A program made the position numbers and the translations under genes. 64,000 nt of DNA, taken from positions 4,546 through 68,545 of the forward strand of contig JAUSGG010000034.1 in NCBI GenBank assembly GCA_030649165.1, written 5' to 3'. Shown piece after piece: positions 29,092 to 35,064 of the stretch. Source of the stretch: Armatimonadota bacterium. GTDB taxonomy: Bacteria > Armatimonadota > UBA5829 > JAUSEB01. The number at the start of each line of letters is the position of its first letter. The first letter of the stretch is position 1. Under the pieces are notes generated by a model, which saw nothing but the letters and a program-made list of their open reading frames with translations, did no database searches and was not told where the DNA came from.

Positions 29092-30075
29092 ATGGCCTCG
29101 CGAATGAGCACGGCGCTCAGGCAGGAGGAGCCGGAAGTCGAGCAGCTCGAACTGATATCCATCGTGATCCCGGCGTACAACGAGGAGGAGAGTATCGAGC
29201 CGCTGTACAGGGAGCTCGTAAGCTCGTTGTCGGCGACGGGCAGGCCGTTCGAGATCATCTTCATCAACGATGGCAGCACGGACGGTTCCCACGGCGTCCT
29301 GCGAAGGATTTGCCAGAGCGATCCACGGGCGCGGAGTGTGCGGCTCAGACGCAATTTCGGCAAAGCCGCCGCGCTGGCGGAAGGTTTCAGTGAGGCGAGG
29401 GGTTCGATAATCATTACTATGGACGCCGACCTGCAGGACGATCCGGCGGAGATACCCAATTTTCTTGCAAAGCTGGACGAGGGGTTCGATCTGGTCTCCG
29501 GCTGGAAGTTCCGCCGGCTCGACCCGATAGGGAAGACGCTGCCGTCGAAGTTGTTCAACAAGGTCGCGGCTATGACGACCGGGGTGCGTCTCCACGACTT
29601 CAACTGCGGGTTCAAGGCGTATCGCCGGGAGGTCTTGGATCACGTCAAGGTCTATGGCGAATTGCACCGTTACATCCCCGCTCTGGCCTACGGCAATGGG
29701 TTCGTGGTCGGTGAACTCAAGGTCAACCACCGGCCCCGGAAGTTCGGGAAATCCAAGTATGGCATTTCGCGATTCACGCGGGGCCTTCTCGACCTGCTTA
29801 CAGTGCTTTTCATAACGCGATATACCAAGAAGCCGCTTCACCTGTTCGGGTCTATGGGGCTGTTCCTTTTGGCGATTGGGTTTGCCGTCAATGGGTACCT
29901 GGCCGTGTTGTGGACGATGGGATACGGCATCGGACACCGGCCTCTCCTGACCCTGGGCGTTCTCCTTATGATCCTCGGCATTCAGTTTATTTCAACTGGC
30001 CTGATGGGGGAGATGATGGTCCACATGCAGCGCAAGGACGACACGCGCGCCGAGGGCAGAGCGGTGAGGGACTGA
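29092..30075 (+). CDS. GT2 polyprenol-phosphate glycosyltransferase (GtrB/ArnC/DPM1-like)
   Basis: IPAYNEE, DGSTD, RNFGKAAAL, MDADLQDDP, DFNCGFKAYR, two C-terminal hydrophobic helices. Confidence 0.9.
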   Translation: MASRMSTALRQEEPEVEQLELISIVIPAYNEEESIEPLYRELVSSLSATGRPFEIIFINDGSTDGSHGVLRRICQSDPRARSVRLRRNFGKAAALAEGFSEARGSIIITMDADLQDDPAEIPNFLAKLDEGFDLVSGWKFRRLDPIGKTLPSKLFNKVAAMTTGVRLHDFNCGFKAYRREVLDHVKVYGELHRYIPALAYGNGFVVGELKVNHRPRKFGKSKYGISRFTRGLLDLLTVLFITRYTKKPLHLFGSMGLFLLAIGFAVNGYLAVLWTMGYGIGHRPLLTLGVLLMILGIQFISTGLMGEMMVHMQRKDDTRAEGRAVRD

Positions 30076-30129
30076 GCGCTGAGTGACCCCACCCTCCCTG
30101 AAGGTGAAGGGAGTCCGGAGGAGCAATGC

Positions 30130-31251
30130 GTGAAGATATGTGTGTTTGGGCCGTCGTATCCTCTGAGGGGCGGGATCGCTCATTACACGTCGCTGTTCTG
30201 CAACGCGCTGCGGGAGCGGTCTCATGACGTTAAGCTGATAACGTTCAAACGGCTTTATCCGAGATTCCTTTTCCCCGGCAAGACGGAGAAGGACACCAGC
30301 GGAACGCCGATACGGTCGGACGCGGAGCCTGTGATCGACTCCATGAACCCGCTGACGTGGCTCGCGGCCGGAAAACGAATGCGGGCATTTCGCCCCGATC
30401 TGGTTGTCATCCAGTGGTGGCATCCGATGTTCGCGCCTCAGTACGCGACGGTCGCCCGGTTCCGTCCCAGAGGCTCCAGGCTGGTTTTCCTTTGCCACAA
30501 CGTCATCCCGCACGAATCGGCCGGGCCGATGCAGCGTCTGGCGAGAATGGCGTTGAGGCACGGCGATCACTTTATCGTTCACTCCGAAGAGGACCGACGC
30601 AATCTGATCGGACTTGTGCCGGGGGCTGATGTAACCAGGTCACGCCATCCGACGTACGAGGTGTTCAATACCGGGGTCTGGGACCGTGACGCGTGCAGGC
30701 GGGAGTTGGGGTTGGACGGCAACGTCATCCTGTTCTTCGGCCTCGTCCGGCGGTACAAGGGTCTTATACACCTGATCCAGGCGATGCCTAAGGTCCTTTC
30801 CAGAATCGACGCGACGCTTTTGATCGTAGGCGAGTTCTACGACAAGAAGGAGCCCTATCTGGAAGAGATACGGAAGCTCGGCGTGAGCGACAGGGCGCTG
30901 ATCGTGGACGAGTACGTGCCCAATGAGGAGGTTGGCAGGTATTTCACCGCGGCGGATGTAGCCGCTCTGCCGTATGTCTCGGCGACGCAGAGTGGGATTG
31001 TCCAAATCGCCTTCGGTTTCAACAAGCCGGTGATCGCGACATCGGTCGGCGGACTGCCGGACGTGATCGAGCACGGCGAGACGGGGCTTCTCACGCCGCC
31101 GGAAGACCCCGACGCTCTTGCGGACGCGATAATCGACTTCTTCGCGGAGTCGCGCGGTGAGCAGTTCTCCCGGAATATTGCGGCGAGACAGGACGAGTTT
31201 TCGTGGGGCAGGATGGTTGACGTGGTAGAGGGACTTGGGACTGAGGGATGA
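30130..31251 (+). CDS. GT4 family glycosyltransferase
   Basis: RGGIAHYT, FFGLVRRYKG, PYVSATQSG, TSVGGLPDVIEHG. Confidence 0.9.
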   Translation: MKICVFGPSYPLRGGIAHYTSLFCNALRERSHDVKLITFKRLYPRFLFPGKTEKDTSGTPIRSDAEPVIDSMNPLTWLAAGKRMRAFRPDLVVIQWWHPMFAPQYATVARFRPRGSRLVFLCHNVIPHESAGPMQRLARMALRHGDHFIVHSEEDRRNLIGLVPGADVTRSRHPTYEVFNTGVWDRDACRRELGLDGNVILFFGLVRRYKGLIHLIQAMPKVLSRIDATLLIVGEFYDKKEPYLEEIRKLGVSDRALIVDEYVPNEEVGRYFTAADVAALPYVSATQSGIVQIAFGFNKPVIATSVGGLPDVIEHGETGLLTPPEDPDALADAIIDFFAESRGEQFSRNIAARQDEFSWGRMVDVVEGLGTEG

Positions 31252-32983: not shown

Positions 32984-33024
32984 CGTCTTCGCTGACTAAG
33001 GCCGGGGGCGTTTCAGACCGATAC

Positions 33025-35064
33025 ATGTACCAGCAGAATCCGCTCCTGGAGGTGTCCGTATTGCGGTCAGCGATTATATCTTCCATAAGATCAAAACGGC
33101 TTTGCGCCTTGTGCGTGTTCACCGTATCGTTCGCTATGTACTTGAAAACTCTGTGCCCGACGGTTTATACCATGGACAACGCCGAACTGTCGGTGGCGGC
33201 CTATACTCTCAGCTTGGCGCACCCGACGGGGTATCCGCTCTTCTGCCTTTTGGGCAAGCTGTTCACCTTGATCATTCCATTTGGCGAGGTGGTTTACAGA
33301 ATAGGCATTATGAATGCGTTTTTCGGCGCGCTGACCGCCGTGTTTCTGTTCCTGTTGGTATTGGAGATCACGGGAAGACACTCCGCCGCGGTTATTGTCT
33401 CACTGACGTTCGCTTTGTCGCGGGTTTTCTGGGACGTTTGCACGAGCGGCGAAGTATACGCGCTGAACGCGATGTTCGTTACGCTGAACCTGCTTTTGCT
33501 GGCCGGCTGGGTCAGGGCGGCACGGCGAGGGGATCCGACCAGAGACACCGACAGGAGGCTGCACTGGCTGGCGTTCTTCCTCGGCCTCGGACTGACAAAC
33601 CACATGACGTCCGCATTTGTGCTGCCGGGAGCGCTGGCGGCGGTAATCCTCTGCGACAGGAGCGTGTTCCGGCGGTGGAAGGCTTTGGCGGGAATGGTTC
33701 TCTTGTTTGCAGCGCCGCTTTCCTTGTACTTGTATCTGCCGCTCCGCGCCCGTCCGGACGAAACGCAGATCTGGGGGAACGTATATCTGACAGAAGGCTT
33801 CCTCCCGTATGTAACCGGCAAGATGTTCCGCAAGCTGATGTTTCACATGACAGCGCATCAGGTCTGGCAGAACCTTCTTCGCTTCCTTCGGTCTGTGCTG
33901 GTCGAGTTCCCGATCCACGTGGCGTGGCTGCTCCCAATTGGGGGAGTGGTTCTGAGGCGTAAGAACGCGCCTATCCTGGCAGCAGTCGGACTGGTTGCGG
34001 CGTTGGACGCGATATATGTGATTAATTACGACATTCACGACATCGACAGTTACTATTTGCCCGGCATGCTGGCGCTGGCGGTTCTGCTGGGCAGCGGGTT
34101 CAGTCTTATGCTTGATAAGCTGGTTGAGCGAAGGACCGCGGGATTCGCCGTCGTCGGCATCATCGGTCTGGCGCTAGTTGCGATCGCCGCCGGGAACTAC
34201 CGATTTGTGGACAAGAGCCACAACTATATCGTAGAAGATTTTGGCCAGAACTTGCTCAAATCTATGCCGGCTGATTCCCTTGTGATTGCGTGCGGGGATT
34301 CGACCTTCAACGCGTTGTTGTACGATCGGGTGGTACACAAGAAGCGGCAGGACATAATCCTGCTTGAGCGCAATGTGATCAGGACCTGGCGTCCGTACTG
34401 CAAGCGTTATAACGCCGAGCCTTATCTATTGAGTGTTGCGGAGCGGGCGCCGGAAGTGGAGCGCGTGTACAAGACCGGGCGCTACAGTCGGGAAGCTGTC
34501 AAGGAAGAGTATCTCTTGCGCGATATCATCGCCGAGAGCATGAGGCGGCGTCCGGTATATCTGATGTGCAGGGGCGACAACGATCTGGCTACTCACCCGA
34601 TACTCAAGCGCATGGAGTCGGATTATCAGCTCGTGATCGAGGGCCTGGCCTATCGAGTGCTGCCTAAGAAAGCCTATGTCGACAAGCAGCAGCTCGCCTT
34701 ATGCAACGAGCGGCTGTGGTCTACATACAGGCTGGACCATATATACGACCACTCGATACGCGGCGGAGAATTCGATTTGGAGATACCATACCGCTACTCC
34801 GGTCTGCACGTGCGCCTGGGCGACTTGGAGACTGACGCCGGGATGTACTCCGCCGCGGCGGGCAATTACCGAAAGGCGCTAAAGATCGACAGCGGGCTCA
34901 CGCCAGCGCGCAACGGACTAGCCCTGTCTCTCGTCGGGCTTGGGGACCTTCCGGGCGCAATGAGAGAATGGCAGACCGTGCTGCAGCTTTCGCCGGACAA
35001 TGCGGCGGCCGCGCATAATCTTCAGGTGGCGCAGAGGCAGTTGGCGATGGGGAGTCAGGACTGA
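33025..35064 (+). CDS. DUF2723 (TMEM260-like, GT-C fold) membrane glycosyltransferase with C-terminal TPR
   Basis: LCPTVYTMDNAEL, LAHPTGYPL, EVYAL, GLGLTNH, many TM helices, TPR tail; start may be TTG 33061. Confidence 0.85.
   Translation: MYQQNPLLEVSVLRSAIISSIRSKRLCALCVFTVSFAMYLKTLCPTVYTMDNAELSVAAYTLSLAHPTGYPLFCLLGKLFTLIIPFGEVVYRIGIMNAFFGALTAVFLFLLVLEITGRHSAAVIVSLTFALSRVFWDVCTSGEVYALNAMFVTLNLLLLAGWVRAARRGDPTRDTDRRLHWLAFFLGLGLTNHMTSAFVLPGALAAVILCDRSVFRRWKALAGMVLLFAAPLSLYLYLPLRARPDETQIWGNVYLTEGFLPYVTGKMFRKLMFHMTAHQVWQNLLRFLRSVLVEFPIHVAWLLPIGGVVLRRKNAPILAAVGLVAALDAIYVINYDIHDIDSYYLPGMLALAVLLGSGFSLMLDKLVERRTAGFAVVGIIGLALVAIAAGNYRFVDKSHNYIVEDFGQNLLKSMPADSLVIACGDSTFNALLYDRVVHKKRQDIILLERNVIRTWRPYCKRYNAEPYLLSVAERAPEVERVYKTGRYSREAVKEEYLLRDIIAESMRRRPVYLMCRGDNDLATHPILKRMESDYQLVIEGLAYRVLPKKAYVDKQQLALCNERLWSTYRLDHIYDHSIRGGEFDLEIPYRYSGLHVRLGDLETDAGMYSAAAGNYRKALKIDSGLTPARNGLALSLVGLGDLPGAMREWQTVLQLSPDNAAAAHNLQVAQRQLAMGSQD

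Follow-up and report, generated by a model that had tools for sequence, protein, structure and literature searches.

Layout of the locus

The window, a 64-kb stretch of DNA from a groundwater Armatimonadota genome, contains the following genes and features around its DUF2723 gene:

29083-30075, + strand: GT2, a polyprenyl-phosphate glycosyltransferase of the ArnC/GtrB type
30130-31251, + strand: GT4, a soluble (cytoplasmic) glycosyltransferase (PF13692/PF00534, no TM helix)
31505-31888, - strand: pilin B, a second, more divergent prepilin (PF07963 N_methyl at 5.7e-7)
31996-32025, - strand: strong intrinsic terminator 3' of pilin A (13-bp stem + T7)
32038-32418, - strand: pilin A, precursor of a type IV filament major (pseudo)pilin, 126 aa (PF07963 at 8.4e-9)
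32419-33024: divergent spacer between pilin A and the DUF2723 gene, 607 bp
33025-35064, + strand: DUF2723/TMEM260-like GT-C gene with a C-terminal TPR (PF11028 and TPR matches)
35179-35201, + strand: terminator-like hairpin 3' of the DUF2723 gene, within a dispersed G/C-rich palindromic repeat

The five genes lie as the initial annotation described them, with GT2-GT4 converging on the pilins and with pilin A and the DUF2723 gene diverging. Because these last two are divergent and 607 bp apart, they do not form one operon in the window. The spacer has no Rfam match. It includes ~210 bp (32697-32907) of a dispersed repeat with other copies at 1-110, 53742-54055, and 23058-23165. On the other side, the hairpin at 35179-35201 parts the DUF2723 gene from larE.

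The DUF2723 protein

The DUF2723 product has 679 aa, or 667 aa in the database gene call, which starts at TTG 33061. It scores 103.5 bits (1.5e-29) against PF11028 TMEM260-like, for which the cut-off is 24.2 bits, and has a TPR match at residues 590-670; its match to the PMT family PF02366 is marginal at 4e-4, below threshold. The family, with 13,322 representative clusters at E<=1e-30, is very large. Its human member, TMEM260 (PDB ID: 9rql/9rqm/9rqn), is a protein O-mannosyltransferase of IPT domains that grips extended peptides with its TPR and uses a polyprenyl-type phosphate donor for the transfer of a single sugar. The DUF2723 family profile aligns with 9rql at 5e-88 over positions 13-524, and the window protein by itself does so at 2e-37, the homology covering the TM core and continuing into the beginning of the luminal domain. 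Residue mapping places D51, H66, and D425 of the window protein on D52, H67, and D441, which are essential for the human enzyme. D51 and H66 are near-invariant across 100 bacterial homologs; the D425 equivalent is not clearly retained in subclade B, where the alignment is uncertain. In the donor loop, human R264 and Y267 are replaced by G265 and F268, with K266 and R269 nearby.

The AlphaFold (AF2) model (pLDDT 91.5, pTM 0.91) has the build of the human enzyme, with 11 TM helices, a Rossmann-like domain at ~402-566, and a 5-helix TPR at ~582-676, and Foldseek gives only GT-C enzymes in its top ranks (PglB, STT3, ArnT, DPY19, Pmt4). Profile matches, residue mapping, and structure comparison thus agree that this is a genuine TMEM260-family GT-C with its key residues intact, as had been assigned from the sequence. 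We give very little credence to a non-catalytic role as a TPR scaffold in pilus assembly, in the manner of PilF/PilW. The protein does have a TPR domain, and one JGI homolog is auto-named "Tfp pilus assembly protein PilF," but that name is owed merely to the TPR repeats, and the donor-site and base residues are conserved together with the complete GT-C core.

The pilins

The only 2 prepilin motifs in the window are those of pilins A and B, both of the form G|FTL(I/V)E within PF07963. Pilin A has the leader MKRIRKKRSAG|F, cysteines C47, C93, and C110 that are conserved in the family alignment, a T-D-T-P motif at residues 70-73, within the alpha-beta loop, and a flexible C-terminal tail rich in S/T/G/N. 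Its AF2 model has pLDDT 81.5, and among solved structures its closest full-length relative is Thermus PilA4 (6xxd), a pilin that is O-glycosylated on three Ser in the alpha-beta loop. The strong terminator directly 3' of the pilin A stop codon fits the expectation for a highly expressed major pilin gene. Pilin B matches pilin A by phmmer at 1.7e-30, and its true start is probably one of the Met codons just 5' of ...MDKRKTAG|FTLVEM.

The initial annotation drew attention to the Ser/Thr-rich C-terminus of the first pilin. The description fits pilin A, with 11 Ser/Thr in the last 35 residues, and does not extend to pilin B, with 5. As an argument for glycosylation it has no discriminating power, because such richness is typical of the whole pilin family: the S+T share of the globular part is 24% in DUF2723-linked pilins versus 23% in unlinked ones (p=0.78).

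Pilin linkage across genomes

The initial annotation had asked whether the pairing of DUF2723 with pilins recurs. In an Armatimonadota DUF2723 clade (bootstrap 94%), a prepilin gene lies <=1 kb from DUF2723 at 10/20 loci, so the linkage reaches well beyond close synteny. By subclade, it is found at 4/4 loci in A, 4/8 in B, 3/3 in C, and 0/6 in D, the last being a sister subclade ~40% identical to the window protein. At least 4 distinct gene arrangements occur:

divergent pilin and DUF2723 genes: the window, L001, L007
pilin-DUF2723-pilin, with overlapping or 13-nt junctions: L030, L050, L168, L014
three pilins 5' of DUF2723: L070
pilins embedded among two or three GT-C genes: L025, L171

Pilin and DUF2723 genes are co-directional in subclades A and B, and in A they are operonic, with overlapping stop and start codons.

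Such adjacency could be without functional meaning, a product of chance or of historical synteny, with pilin genes abundant, duplicated, and mobile in these genomes. The pilin family is indeed very large (3,332 matches at E<=1e-10, of which every named one comes from Armatimonadota), tandem duplication is frequent, and the dispersed repeat in the window spacer hints at rearrangement. Asking from the pilin side, DUF2723 is found at 0/21 informative loci with pilins 49-89% identical to pilin A; the neighbors there include an epimerase gene upstream at L088 (89% identical), an ECF sigma factor at L089, and ftsY at L091. Against this stand 18 prepilin genes near the DUF2723 genes of the clade versus 1.1 expected from the flanks, a 16-fold local enrichment with a binomial p=3e-8, or p=6e-4 when only 4/8 lineages are counted as independent. 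Moreover, linked loci fall to either side of the clade's deepest, well-supported split, where DUF2723 identity is no more than 28-31%, and they vary in orientation and gene order. Hence, we regard a meaningless adjacency as quite improbable.

A second alternative concerns specificity: DUF2723 may be a broad-spectrum periplasmic glycosyltransferase whose acceptors are many envelope proteins or else a glycan or lipid of the envelope, with pilin proximity reflecting clustering or co-regulation of cell-surface genes. Most of this large family is indeed unlinked to pilins (0/70 loci outside Armatimonadota, where the neighbors are POTRA/Omp85, GlnE, and similar genes), as are half of the loci in the Armatimonadota clade, and near-identical pilins exist with no DUF2723 neighbor. 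Several DUF2723 paralogs can also occur in one genome (L069 and L087 share one MAG, and L019, L082, and L025 have tandem copies), which suggests diversified acceptors. However, without a direct functional tie it is difficult to account for the enrichment and for the operonic overlaps of subclade A, and the peptide-gripping module of Rossmann-like domain plus TPR is retained with base D425 as in the protein-specific human enzyme. We consider a broad-spectrum role somewhat unlikely. The pairing is not obligatory. Since one in two of the related genomes examined shows it, it is probably the mark of an enzyme that glycosylates pilins.

GT2 and GT4

GT2 matches PF00535 at 1.7e-35 and aligns over its full length with ArnC (PDB ID: 9bhc, 4.6e-53) and GtrB; it carries a DAD motif (residue 114) and, at the C-terminus, two TM helices. 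It is nearer ArnC/GtrB than Dol-P-Man synthase, and mannose is therefore not indicated. The initial annotation had joined donor synthase, transferase, and acceptor into one unit, which in its full form would make GT2, DUF2723, the pilins, and GT4 a dedicated O-mannosylation locus. In the window, as in L001, all components do fall inside 6 kb, the convergence of pilin B and GT4 is kept in L089 and L095, and GT-C enzymes need a polyprenyl-phosphate-sugar synthase of the type to which GT2 belongs. However, among ~100 loci no ArnC-like GT2 lies <=10 kb from another DUF2723 gene except in the syntenic relative L001, and that synteny is not independent evidence because it also covers the unrelated larEBC, GH20, and OGG. 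GT2-GT4 are instead the orthologs of the two genes that open a conserved operon, GT2-GT4-epimerase-GT2-Wzx-PMT_2-(rSAM)-PMT_2 (L172, L174, L175), with neither pilins nor DUF2723 inside, so that their conserved GT-C partners are PMT_2 enzymes. Furthermore, the locus has no flippase gene, and GT4, being cytoplasmic, is unable to act on an exported pilin. The single dedicated unit is accordingly improbable. GT2 may still supply a lipid-linked sugar usable by the DUF2723 enzyme, as a possible, not dedicated, donor synthase, and GT4, the conserved partner of GT2, most likely has no part in pilin modification.

Two known systems share this logic. In actinobacterial Pmt/Ppm1, a GT2 polyprenol-P-Man synthase and a GT39 PMT carry out O-mannosylation of exported proteins, and linkage of the synthase gene is unneeded. 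The pairing of a GT2 lipid-sugar synthase with a GT-C protein O-glycosyltransferase resembles the window, but the GT-C is of another family and has no TPR, and the substrates are Sec-exported proteins rather than pilins. In three-component GtrA/GtrB/GtrC-type systems, a GT2 polyprenyl-P-sugar synthase provides for a GT-C that uses the product outside the cytoplasm. The window GT2 is GtrB/ArnC-like, but it has no adjacent flippase gene, the GT2-DUF2723 linkage is not conserved, and the acceptors of Gtr systems are polysaccharides.

A candidate pilin O-glycosyltransferase

The reading we prefer, at a probability of roughly 0.5 and by analogy with Pseudomonas TfpW, is that the DUF2723 enzyme is a periplasm-facing pilin O-glycosyltransferase. 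It would be an inner-membrane GT-C with active site, Rossmann-like domain, and TPR on the periplasmic side, whereas human TMEM260 works in the ER. As in TMEM260 and TfpW, it would take one sugar from a polyprenyl-phosphate-sugar and pass it to Ser/Thr hydroxyls in an extended, exposed stretch of the neighboring type IV (pseudo)pilins, at the membrane-anchored stage prior to filament assembly. Where the human acceptor is an IPT domain, the proposed one is pilin A, and the stretch most likely to be modified is either the flexible C-terminal tail or the alpha-beta loop with T-x-T-P. This segment would be gripped by the TPR "fingers," with D425 as base and D51/H66 positioning the donor. The enzyme need not be exclusive to pilins and would probably act in trans on several pilin paralogs. 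The analysis establishes family membership, conserved residues, architecture, and the statistical recurrence of pilin linkage, whereas the putative acceptor, site, and sugar are inferred, as is a biological role that may lie, for example, in filament surface properties or phage evasion. The sequencing runs found are all DNA runs from groundwater. The initial annotation knew of no demonstrated acceptor for a bacterial DUF2723, and we find no report of one in the searchable literature.

TfpW, a close functional precedent that the initial annotation does not mention, is the pilin D-arabinofuranosyl transferase of group IV P. aeruginosa strains. It is described as an 11-TM GT-C of 646 aa with a periplasmic TPR domain, encoded directly after pilA, that O-glycosylates pilin Ser/Thr from a polyprenyl-phosphate monosaccharide, and its homologs adjoin pilA in several species. 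By this description it is like the window protein in fold, TPR, and pilin-adjacent gene. The differences are that its reported motifs DDX (loop 1) and YX6PFX7P have no evident counterpart in the DUF2723 consensus (D-x-x-E; HPTGYP), that its gene is downstream of pilA on the same strand, unlike the divergent window gene though similar to co-directional subclades A and B, that no D-Araf pathway genes came to notice here, and that its host belongs to a different phylum. TfpO, encoded by a pilin accessory gene adjoining pilA, also glycosylates pilin in the periplasm, but TfpO/PilO and PglL are of the Wzy_C/O-antigen-ligase-like family rather than GT-C/TPR enzymes and transfer preassembled und-PP-linked oligosaccharides en bloc.

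Layout of the locus

The window derives from a groundwater metagenome and is placed in Armatimonadota by best hits. The gene layout of the initial annotation was borne out, with all genes as described, and those of interest are listed here.

Genes at the pilin-DUF2723 locus (window coordinates and strand)
29083-30075 (+), GT2, glycosyltransferase matching PF00535
30130-31251 (+), GT4, soluble glycosyltransferase with no TM segment
31505-31888 (-), pilin B, PF07963, cleavage motif G/FTL(I/V)E
32038-32418 (-), pilin A, PF07963, cleavage motif G/FTL(I/V)E
33025-35064 (+), DUF2723, TMEM260-like protein of 679 aa with C-terminal TPRs, PF11028 (103.5 bits), divergent from pilin A

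Pilin A and pilin B account for all the prepilin motifs in the whole 64 kb, and a terminator with a 13-bp stem directly 3' of pilin A fits a strongly expressed major pilin. On the 3' side of DUF2723 there are encoded larE, larB, larC, a GH20 hexosaminidase, a 1654-aa secreted protein and OGG, which have no relation to pilin glycosylation. No pilus machinery (ATPase, platform, prepilin peptidase) or minor pilin was recognised in the annotated part of the window, several ORFs outside 20-53 kb lying beyond the Pfam scan. Pilus machinery is commonly unlinked to pilin genes, so its absence nearby is no argument against the pilin identity. Minor-pilin-like genes are found 3' of the pilins in the related loci L007, L088, L050, L014 and L030.

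DUF2723 belongs to the TMEM260 family

PF11028 matches residues 51-207 of DUF2723 at 103.5 bits, where the gathering cut-off is 24.2. A profile of 27 homologues (A1) aligns with human TMEM260 (9rql) with E = 5e-88 over positions 13-524, a span that takes in nearly all of the TM core and the beginning of the luminal domain, and the window protein as a single sequence scores 2e-37 over residues 29-457. In these alignments D51, H66 and D425 of the window protein fall on human D52, H67 and D441, which cryo-EM work on TMEM260 describes as essential, D52 and H67 for donor positioning and D441 as the catalytic base. Among 100 bacterial homologues, D51 is retained in 96 and H66 in 98, and the equivalent of D425 is Asp in 12 of 18 genes of the Armatimonadota clade.

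The AF2 model (pLDDT 91.5, pTM 0.91) shows a membrane part of 11 TM helices together with an alpha/beta domain (about 402-566) and a TPR region of five helices (582-676), and the order of its secondary structure agrees with the "wrist-palm-fingers" build of TMEM260. The top Foldseek matches in the PDB are all GT-C enzymes, namely PglB, STT3, ArnT, DPY19 and Pmt4, each with a probability of 1.0, and AftB, in a fold library that is older than the release of 9rql and does not hold it. By Pfam match, homology, residues and architecture, that is on each criterion examined, DUF2723 is a member of the TMEM260 family. Bacterial relatives of TMEM260 are many, with 13,322 clusters at 50% identity (E ≤ 1e-30).

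Prepilin genes recur beside DUF2723 in Armatimonadota

Twenty DUF2723 loci make up one Armatimonadota clade (bootstrap 94%), which splits into subclades C + D (bootstrap 100%) and A + B (96%). Conservation of the neighbourhood with pilins was the check proposed in the initial annotation, and the association does recur: ten of the 20 loci have a prepilin gene no more than 1 kb away.

Arrangement of prepilin genes in the Armatimonadota DUF2723 clade (linked, prepilin gene within 1 kb)
Subclade C, linked: window, L001, L007; divergent genes, spacers 321-607 bp
Subclade A, linked: L030, L050, L168, L014; pilin-DUF2723-pilin on a single strand
Subclade B, linked: L070; three pilins directly upstream
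Subclade B, linked: L025; DUF2723-pilin-DUF2723, then a 678-aa gene
Subclade B, linked: L171; pilin-DUF2723-PMT_2, then a 599-aa gene
Unlinked: all six of subclade D (identity to the window protein about 40%), and L069, L087, L169, L170

In subclade A the second pilin starts at the DUF2723 stop, 4 nt before it or 13 nt after it, and minor-pilin-like genes are often next. Within 1 kb there are 18 prepilin genes where 1.1 are expected with the flanks as background, a background that is conservative because most of the "far" pilins are part of the same clusters. The binomial p is 3e-8 over loci, and 6e-4 with 4/8 lineages independent. A rival reading is that the genes have simply been inherited side by side. 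The linked loci occur on either side of the deepest split of the clade and in differing orientations, with 28-31% identity between subclades, which argues that the association was kept or regained over a long divergence. Hence shared synteny alone is insufficient to explain it, and the association of pilin and DUF2723 is real.

As to why subclade D is unlinked, a lost catalytic base was considered and ruled out: D425 lies within an ACGDS motif that is retained throughout subclades C and D, so activity loss does not account for the missing linkage. The unlinked L170 has a T2SSE ATPase three genes off.

In L025 (1965-9043) and L171 (2181-8422) the pilin is embedded among large membrane-protein genes, which in L025 include that for the 678-aa protein, without Pfam match, and in L171 those for DUF2723, PMT_2 and the 599-aa protein. 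Such a placement of a pilin among two or three GT-C-type genes suggests multi-step periplasmic glycosylation. The contig of L014 is labelled as a Janthinobacterium lividum MAG and yet has an Armatimonadota-type pilin-DUF2723-pilin locus; it is probably mis-binned. A frameshift or an assembly error has divided its DUF2723 into two ORFs (1706-2947 and 2951-3757).

Limits of the linkage

Outside Armatimonadota, none of 70 DUF2723 loci has a prepilin gene nearby. The neighbours found there are POTRA/Omp85 (15 of 121 neighbours), GlnE (10), CoA-binding proteins and SSB, which probably reflect lineage synteny and give no clue to an acceptor. In lineages of Bacteroidota, Ignavibacteria, Zixibacteria and WOR (among L010-L087), DUF2723 often occurs as tandem paralogues, in three copies in L019 and L082, and also in L010, L023 and L080.

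Seen from the pilin, the family has 3,332 database matches at E ≤ 1e-10, and all the named ones are from Armatimonadota. We scanned 80 metagenome loci with pilins 49-89% identical to pilin A, and no DUF2723 gene was found in any of them, including the 21 informative ones with at least 2.5 kb of flank. Nor was there a recurrent glycosyltransferase at these loci, where only further N_methyl genes recur. At L088, where the pilin is 89% identical, an epimerase is encoded upstream, and downstream come pilin B and a minor pilin; the upstream gene at L089 is for an ECF sigma factor. The link is hence not obligatory, and with most pilin loci lacking the enzyme, DUF2723, if it modifies pilins, would be required to act in trans on paralogues encoded elsewhere. 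There is precedent for this in Neisseria PglL, which acts in trans, and the group-specific accessory genes of Pseudomonas are similarly patchy. The scan indicates that paralogous pilin loci are many, and it does not refute a pilin-directed enzyme.

The neighbouring GT2 and GT4 genes

The initial annotation had joined GT2-GT4, the pilins and DUF2723 into one locus of donor synthase, transferase and acceptor. Along its full length GT2 resembles ArnC (9bhc, 4.6e-53, residues 22-323) and GtrB (5ekp, 9e-33), and it resembles Dol-P-Man synthase (5mlz, 1e-16) less. A DAD motif lies at 114, and two TM segments at 251-306 form a C-terminal hairpin. GT2 is 58-79% identical across Armatimonadota and beyond. 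Judged from sequence, GT2 stands nearer ArnC/GtrB than DPMS, nothing points to mannose as its sugar, and transfer of mannose from polyprenyl-P-Man to protein Ser/Thr would not be indicated.

Within 10 kb of the other DUF2723 genes (87 loci) no GT2 homologue was found except in L001. There the whole neighbourhood matches that of the window, down to larEBC, GH20 and OGG, which is why L001 does not count as independent. A co-located donor synthase is thus unsupported by conservation, and on the same count the three-part locus of GT2, DUF2723 and pilins is rejected. L172, L174 and L175 have an operon that begins with an orthologous GT2-GT4 pair (E = 2e-115 for GT4) and runs in the order GT2-GT4-epimerase-GT2-Wzx-like flippase (Polysacc_synt)-PMT_2-(radical SAM/SPASM)-PMT_2, from which the conserved GT-C partners of GT2-GT4 are the PMT_2 enzymes. 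The window (29083-31251) holds only the first two genes of this operon, abutting the pilins, and L001 holds the first three and DUF362. The operon resembles an uncharacterised Armatimonadota envelope-glycan pathway with two PMT_2 GT-C enzymes. GT4, with no TM segment, cannot act on an exported pilin, and no flippase gene is present beside GT2-GT4 and DUF2723 in the window; three-component glycosylation systems require a flippase. GT2-GT4 belong to another pathway, so that of the earlier interpretation the recurring pilin-DUF2723 association stands and the part given to GT2-GT4 does not. Annotation of the pilin-DUF2723 system should leave the pair out, although GT2 may supply a lipid-linked sugar usable by DUF2723.

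The pilins as proposed acceptors

Both pilins have a short basic leader, G-1, F+1, E+5 and a hydrophobic N-terminal helix (PF07963), which in the AF2 model of pilin A is at 14-65. C93 and C110 are invariant in the family alignment, in keeping with a C-terminal disulfide. The closest full-length solved relative of pilin A is Thermus thermophilus PilA4 (6xxd, aligned residues 12-119), which is O-glycosylated in the alpha-beta loop at Ser59, Ser66 and Ser71; two of these positions are Thr in pilin A, in a low-confidence alignment. A T-D-T-P motif in the alpha-beta loop (residues 70-73) is conserved across the pilin family, and AF2 places it directly after helix alpha-1 and gives a flexible C-terminal tail. 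The subclade A pilins have a long Ser/Thr/Ala/Gly insert in the same loop. These loop and tail features are compatible with glycosylation and are not discriminating. The stretches singled out as candidate modified peptides are KAATDTPVAADLVTEYMR and the C-terminal tail.

Richness in Ser/Thr had been taken to point to the acceptor. Linked pilins have an S+T fraction of 24%, against 23% for unlinked ones (p = 0.78), and with no difference between the two it was dropped as evidence.

Comparison with TfpW and significance

TfpW of P. aeruginosa (AAM52060.1), a 646-aa GT-C protein whose gene neighbours pilA, uses a polyprenyl-P donor to put D-Araf onto Ser/Thr of the pilin. It spans the membrane with 11 TM helices, its N-terminus lying in the cytoplasm and its TPR domain in the periplasm. 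Compared by the description of TfpW and not by sequence, DUF2723 has the same architecture and genomic logic, namely recurrent adjacency to a pilin gene and a predicted 11-TM GT-C core with C-terminal TPRs, and TfpW is its closest functional precedent. What would be new is a pilin-adjacent GT-C/TPR glycosyltransferase from the TMEM260 family, the kind being already known from TfpW. Whether DUF2723 counts as new depends mainly on whether TfpW is itself related in sequence to PF11028.

The best explanation is that DUF2723 is a pilin-directed periplasmic O-glycosyltransferase, to which we give a probability of about one half. Somewhat more tentatively, the prokaryotic branch of TMEM260 may include dedicated type IV pilin O-glycosyltransferases of Armatimonadota, which would provide the first native bacterial acceptor of the family. 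The TMEM260 papers mention "distant homologs in bacteria" with no function given, and beyond them no report on the function of bacterial DUF2723 proteins was found in the searchable literature.

That TMEM260 is a protein O-mannosyltransferase has been known only since 2023, and a human developmental syndrome results from its loss. Through their recurrent and partly operonic pairing with DUF2723, small pilins become the first concrete acceptor that could be tested for this very large group of uncharacterised bacterial proteins. The pairing would offer a tractable prokaryotic model of how peptide substrates are chosen by TPRs and a Rossmann-like "hand", and, in a phylum that has been little studied, would place a second GT-C route to glycosylated pilins alongside that of TfpW. 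If the reading is true, L025 and L171, with a pilin and two or three GT-C genes, suggest that an oligomeric glycan is built up in the periplasm, step by step, on a filament subunit, and the animal O-mannosyltransferase of IPT domains would descend from bacterial filament-decorating enzymes. Possible consequences are for filament surface chemistry and for recognition by phages or predators.

Repeats and other features of the window

The spacer between pilin A and DUF2723 is 607 bp and largely dispersed repeat, and no regulatory RNA in it matches Rfam. The repeat, about 210 nt long (32697-32907), takes up a third of the spacer, with further copies in either orientation, 88-95% alike, at 1-110, 53742-54055 and 23058-23165; one copy is also found 3' of a pilin in L099. 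A second intergenic family, of about 100 nt, is represented at 31268-31368 and 38213-38313 (88%), the one between GT4 and pilin B and the other between larC and GH20, with related copies at 20258-20407 and 53095-53153, and it gives rise to spurious similar ORFs.

The larE-larB-larC set is complete at 35383-38185, directly downstream of DUF2723, and has identical order in L001. Its products make the nickel-pincer cofactor used by lactate racemase, and the stretch of the window that was examined shows no larA. In L091, ftsY and OGG flank three tandem pilin A-like genes. The window has OGG at 45823-46734, with DUF2723-larEBC-GH20 and the 1654-aa gene between OGG and the pilins (31505-46734 overall), so a 13-kb block is an insertion or deletion difference between close relatives. 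At 46930-49584 (-) there is encoded an 884-aa fn3/purple-acid-phosphatase-N protein, whose gene has three internal direct repeats of about 785 nt each, 61-73% alike.

Another repeated element is a palindrome some 45 nt long and rich in G/C (CCTCCCCCTAACCCCCTCC...GGAGGGGGG), with eight copies in the window, at 15777, 23178, 27486, 35079, 38335, 40496, 53873 and 56552. The copies placed against gene ends (35079, 38335 and 40496) are just 3' of stop codons, and the element is REP-like and a possible terminator.
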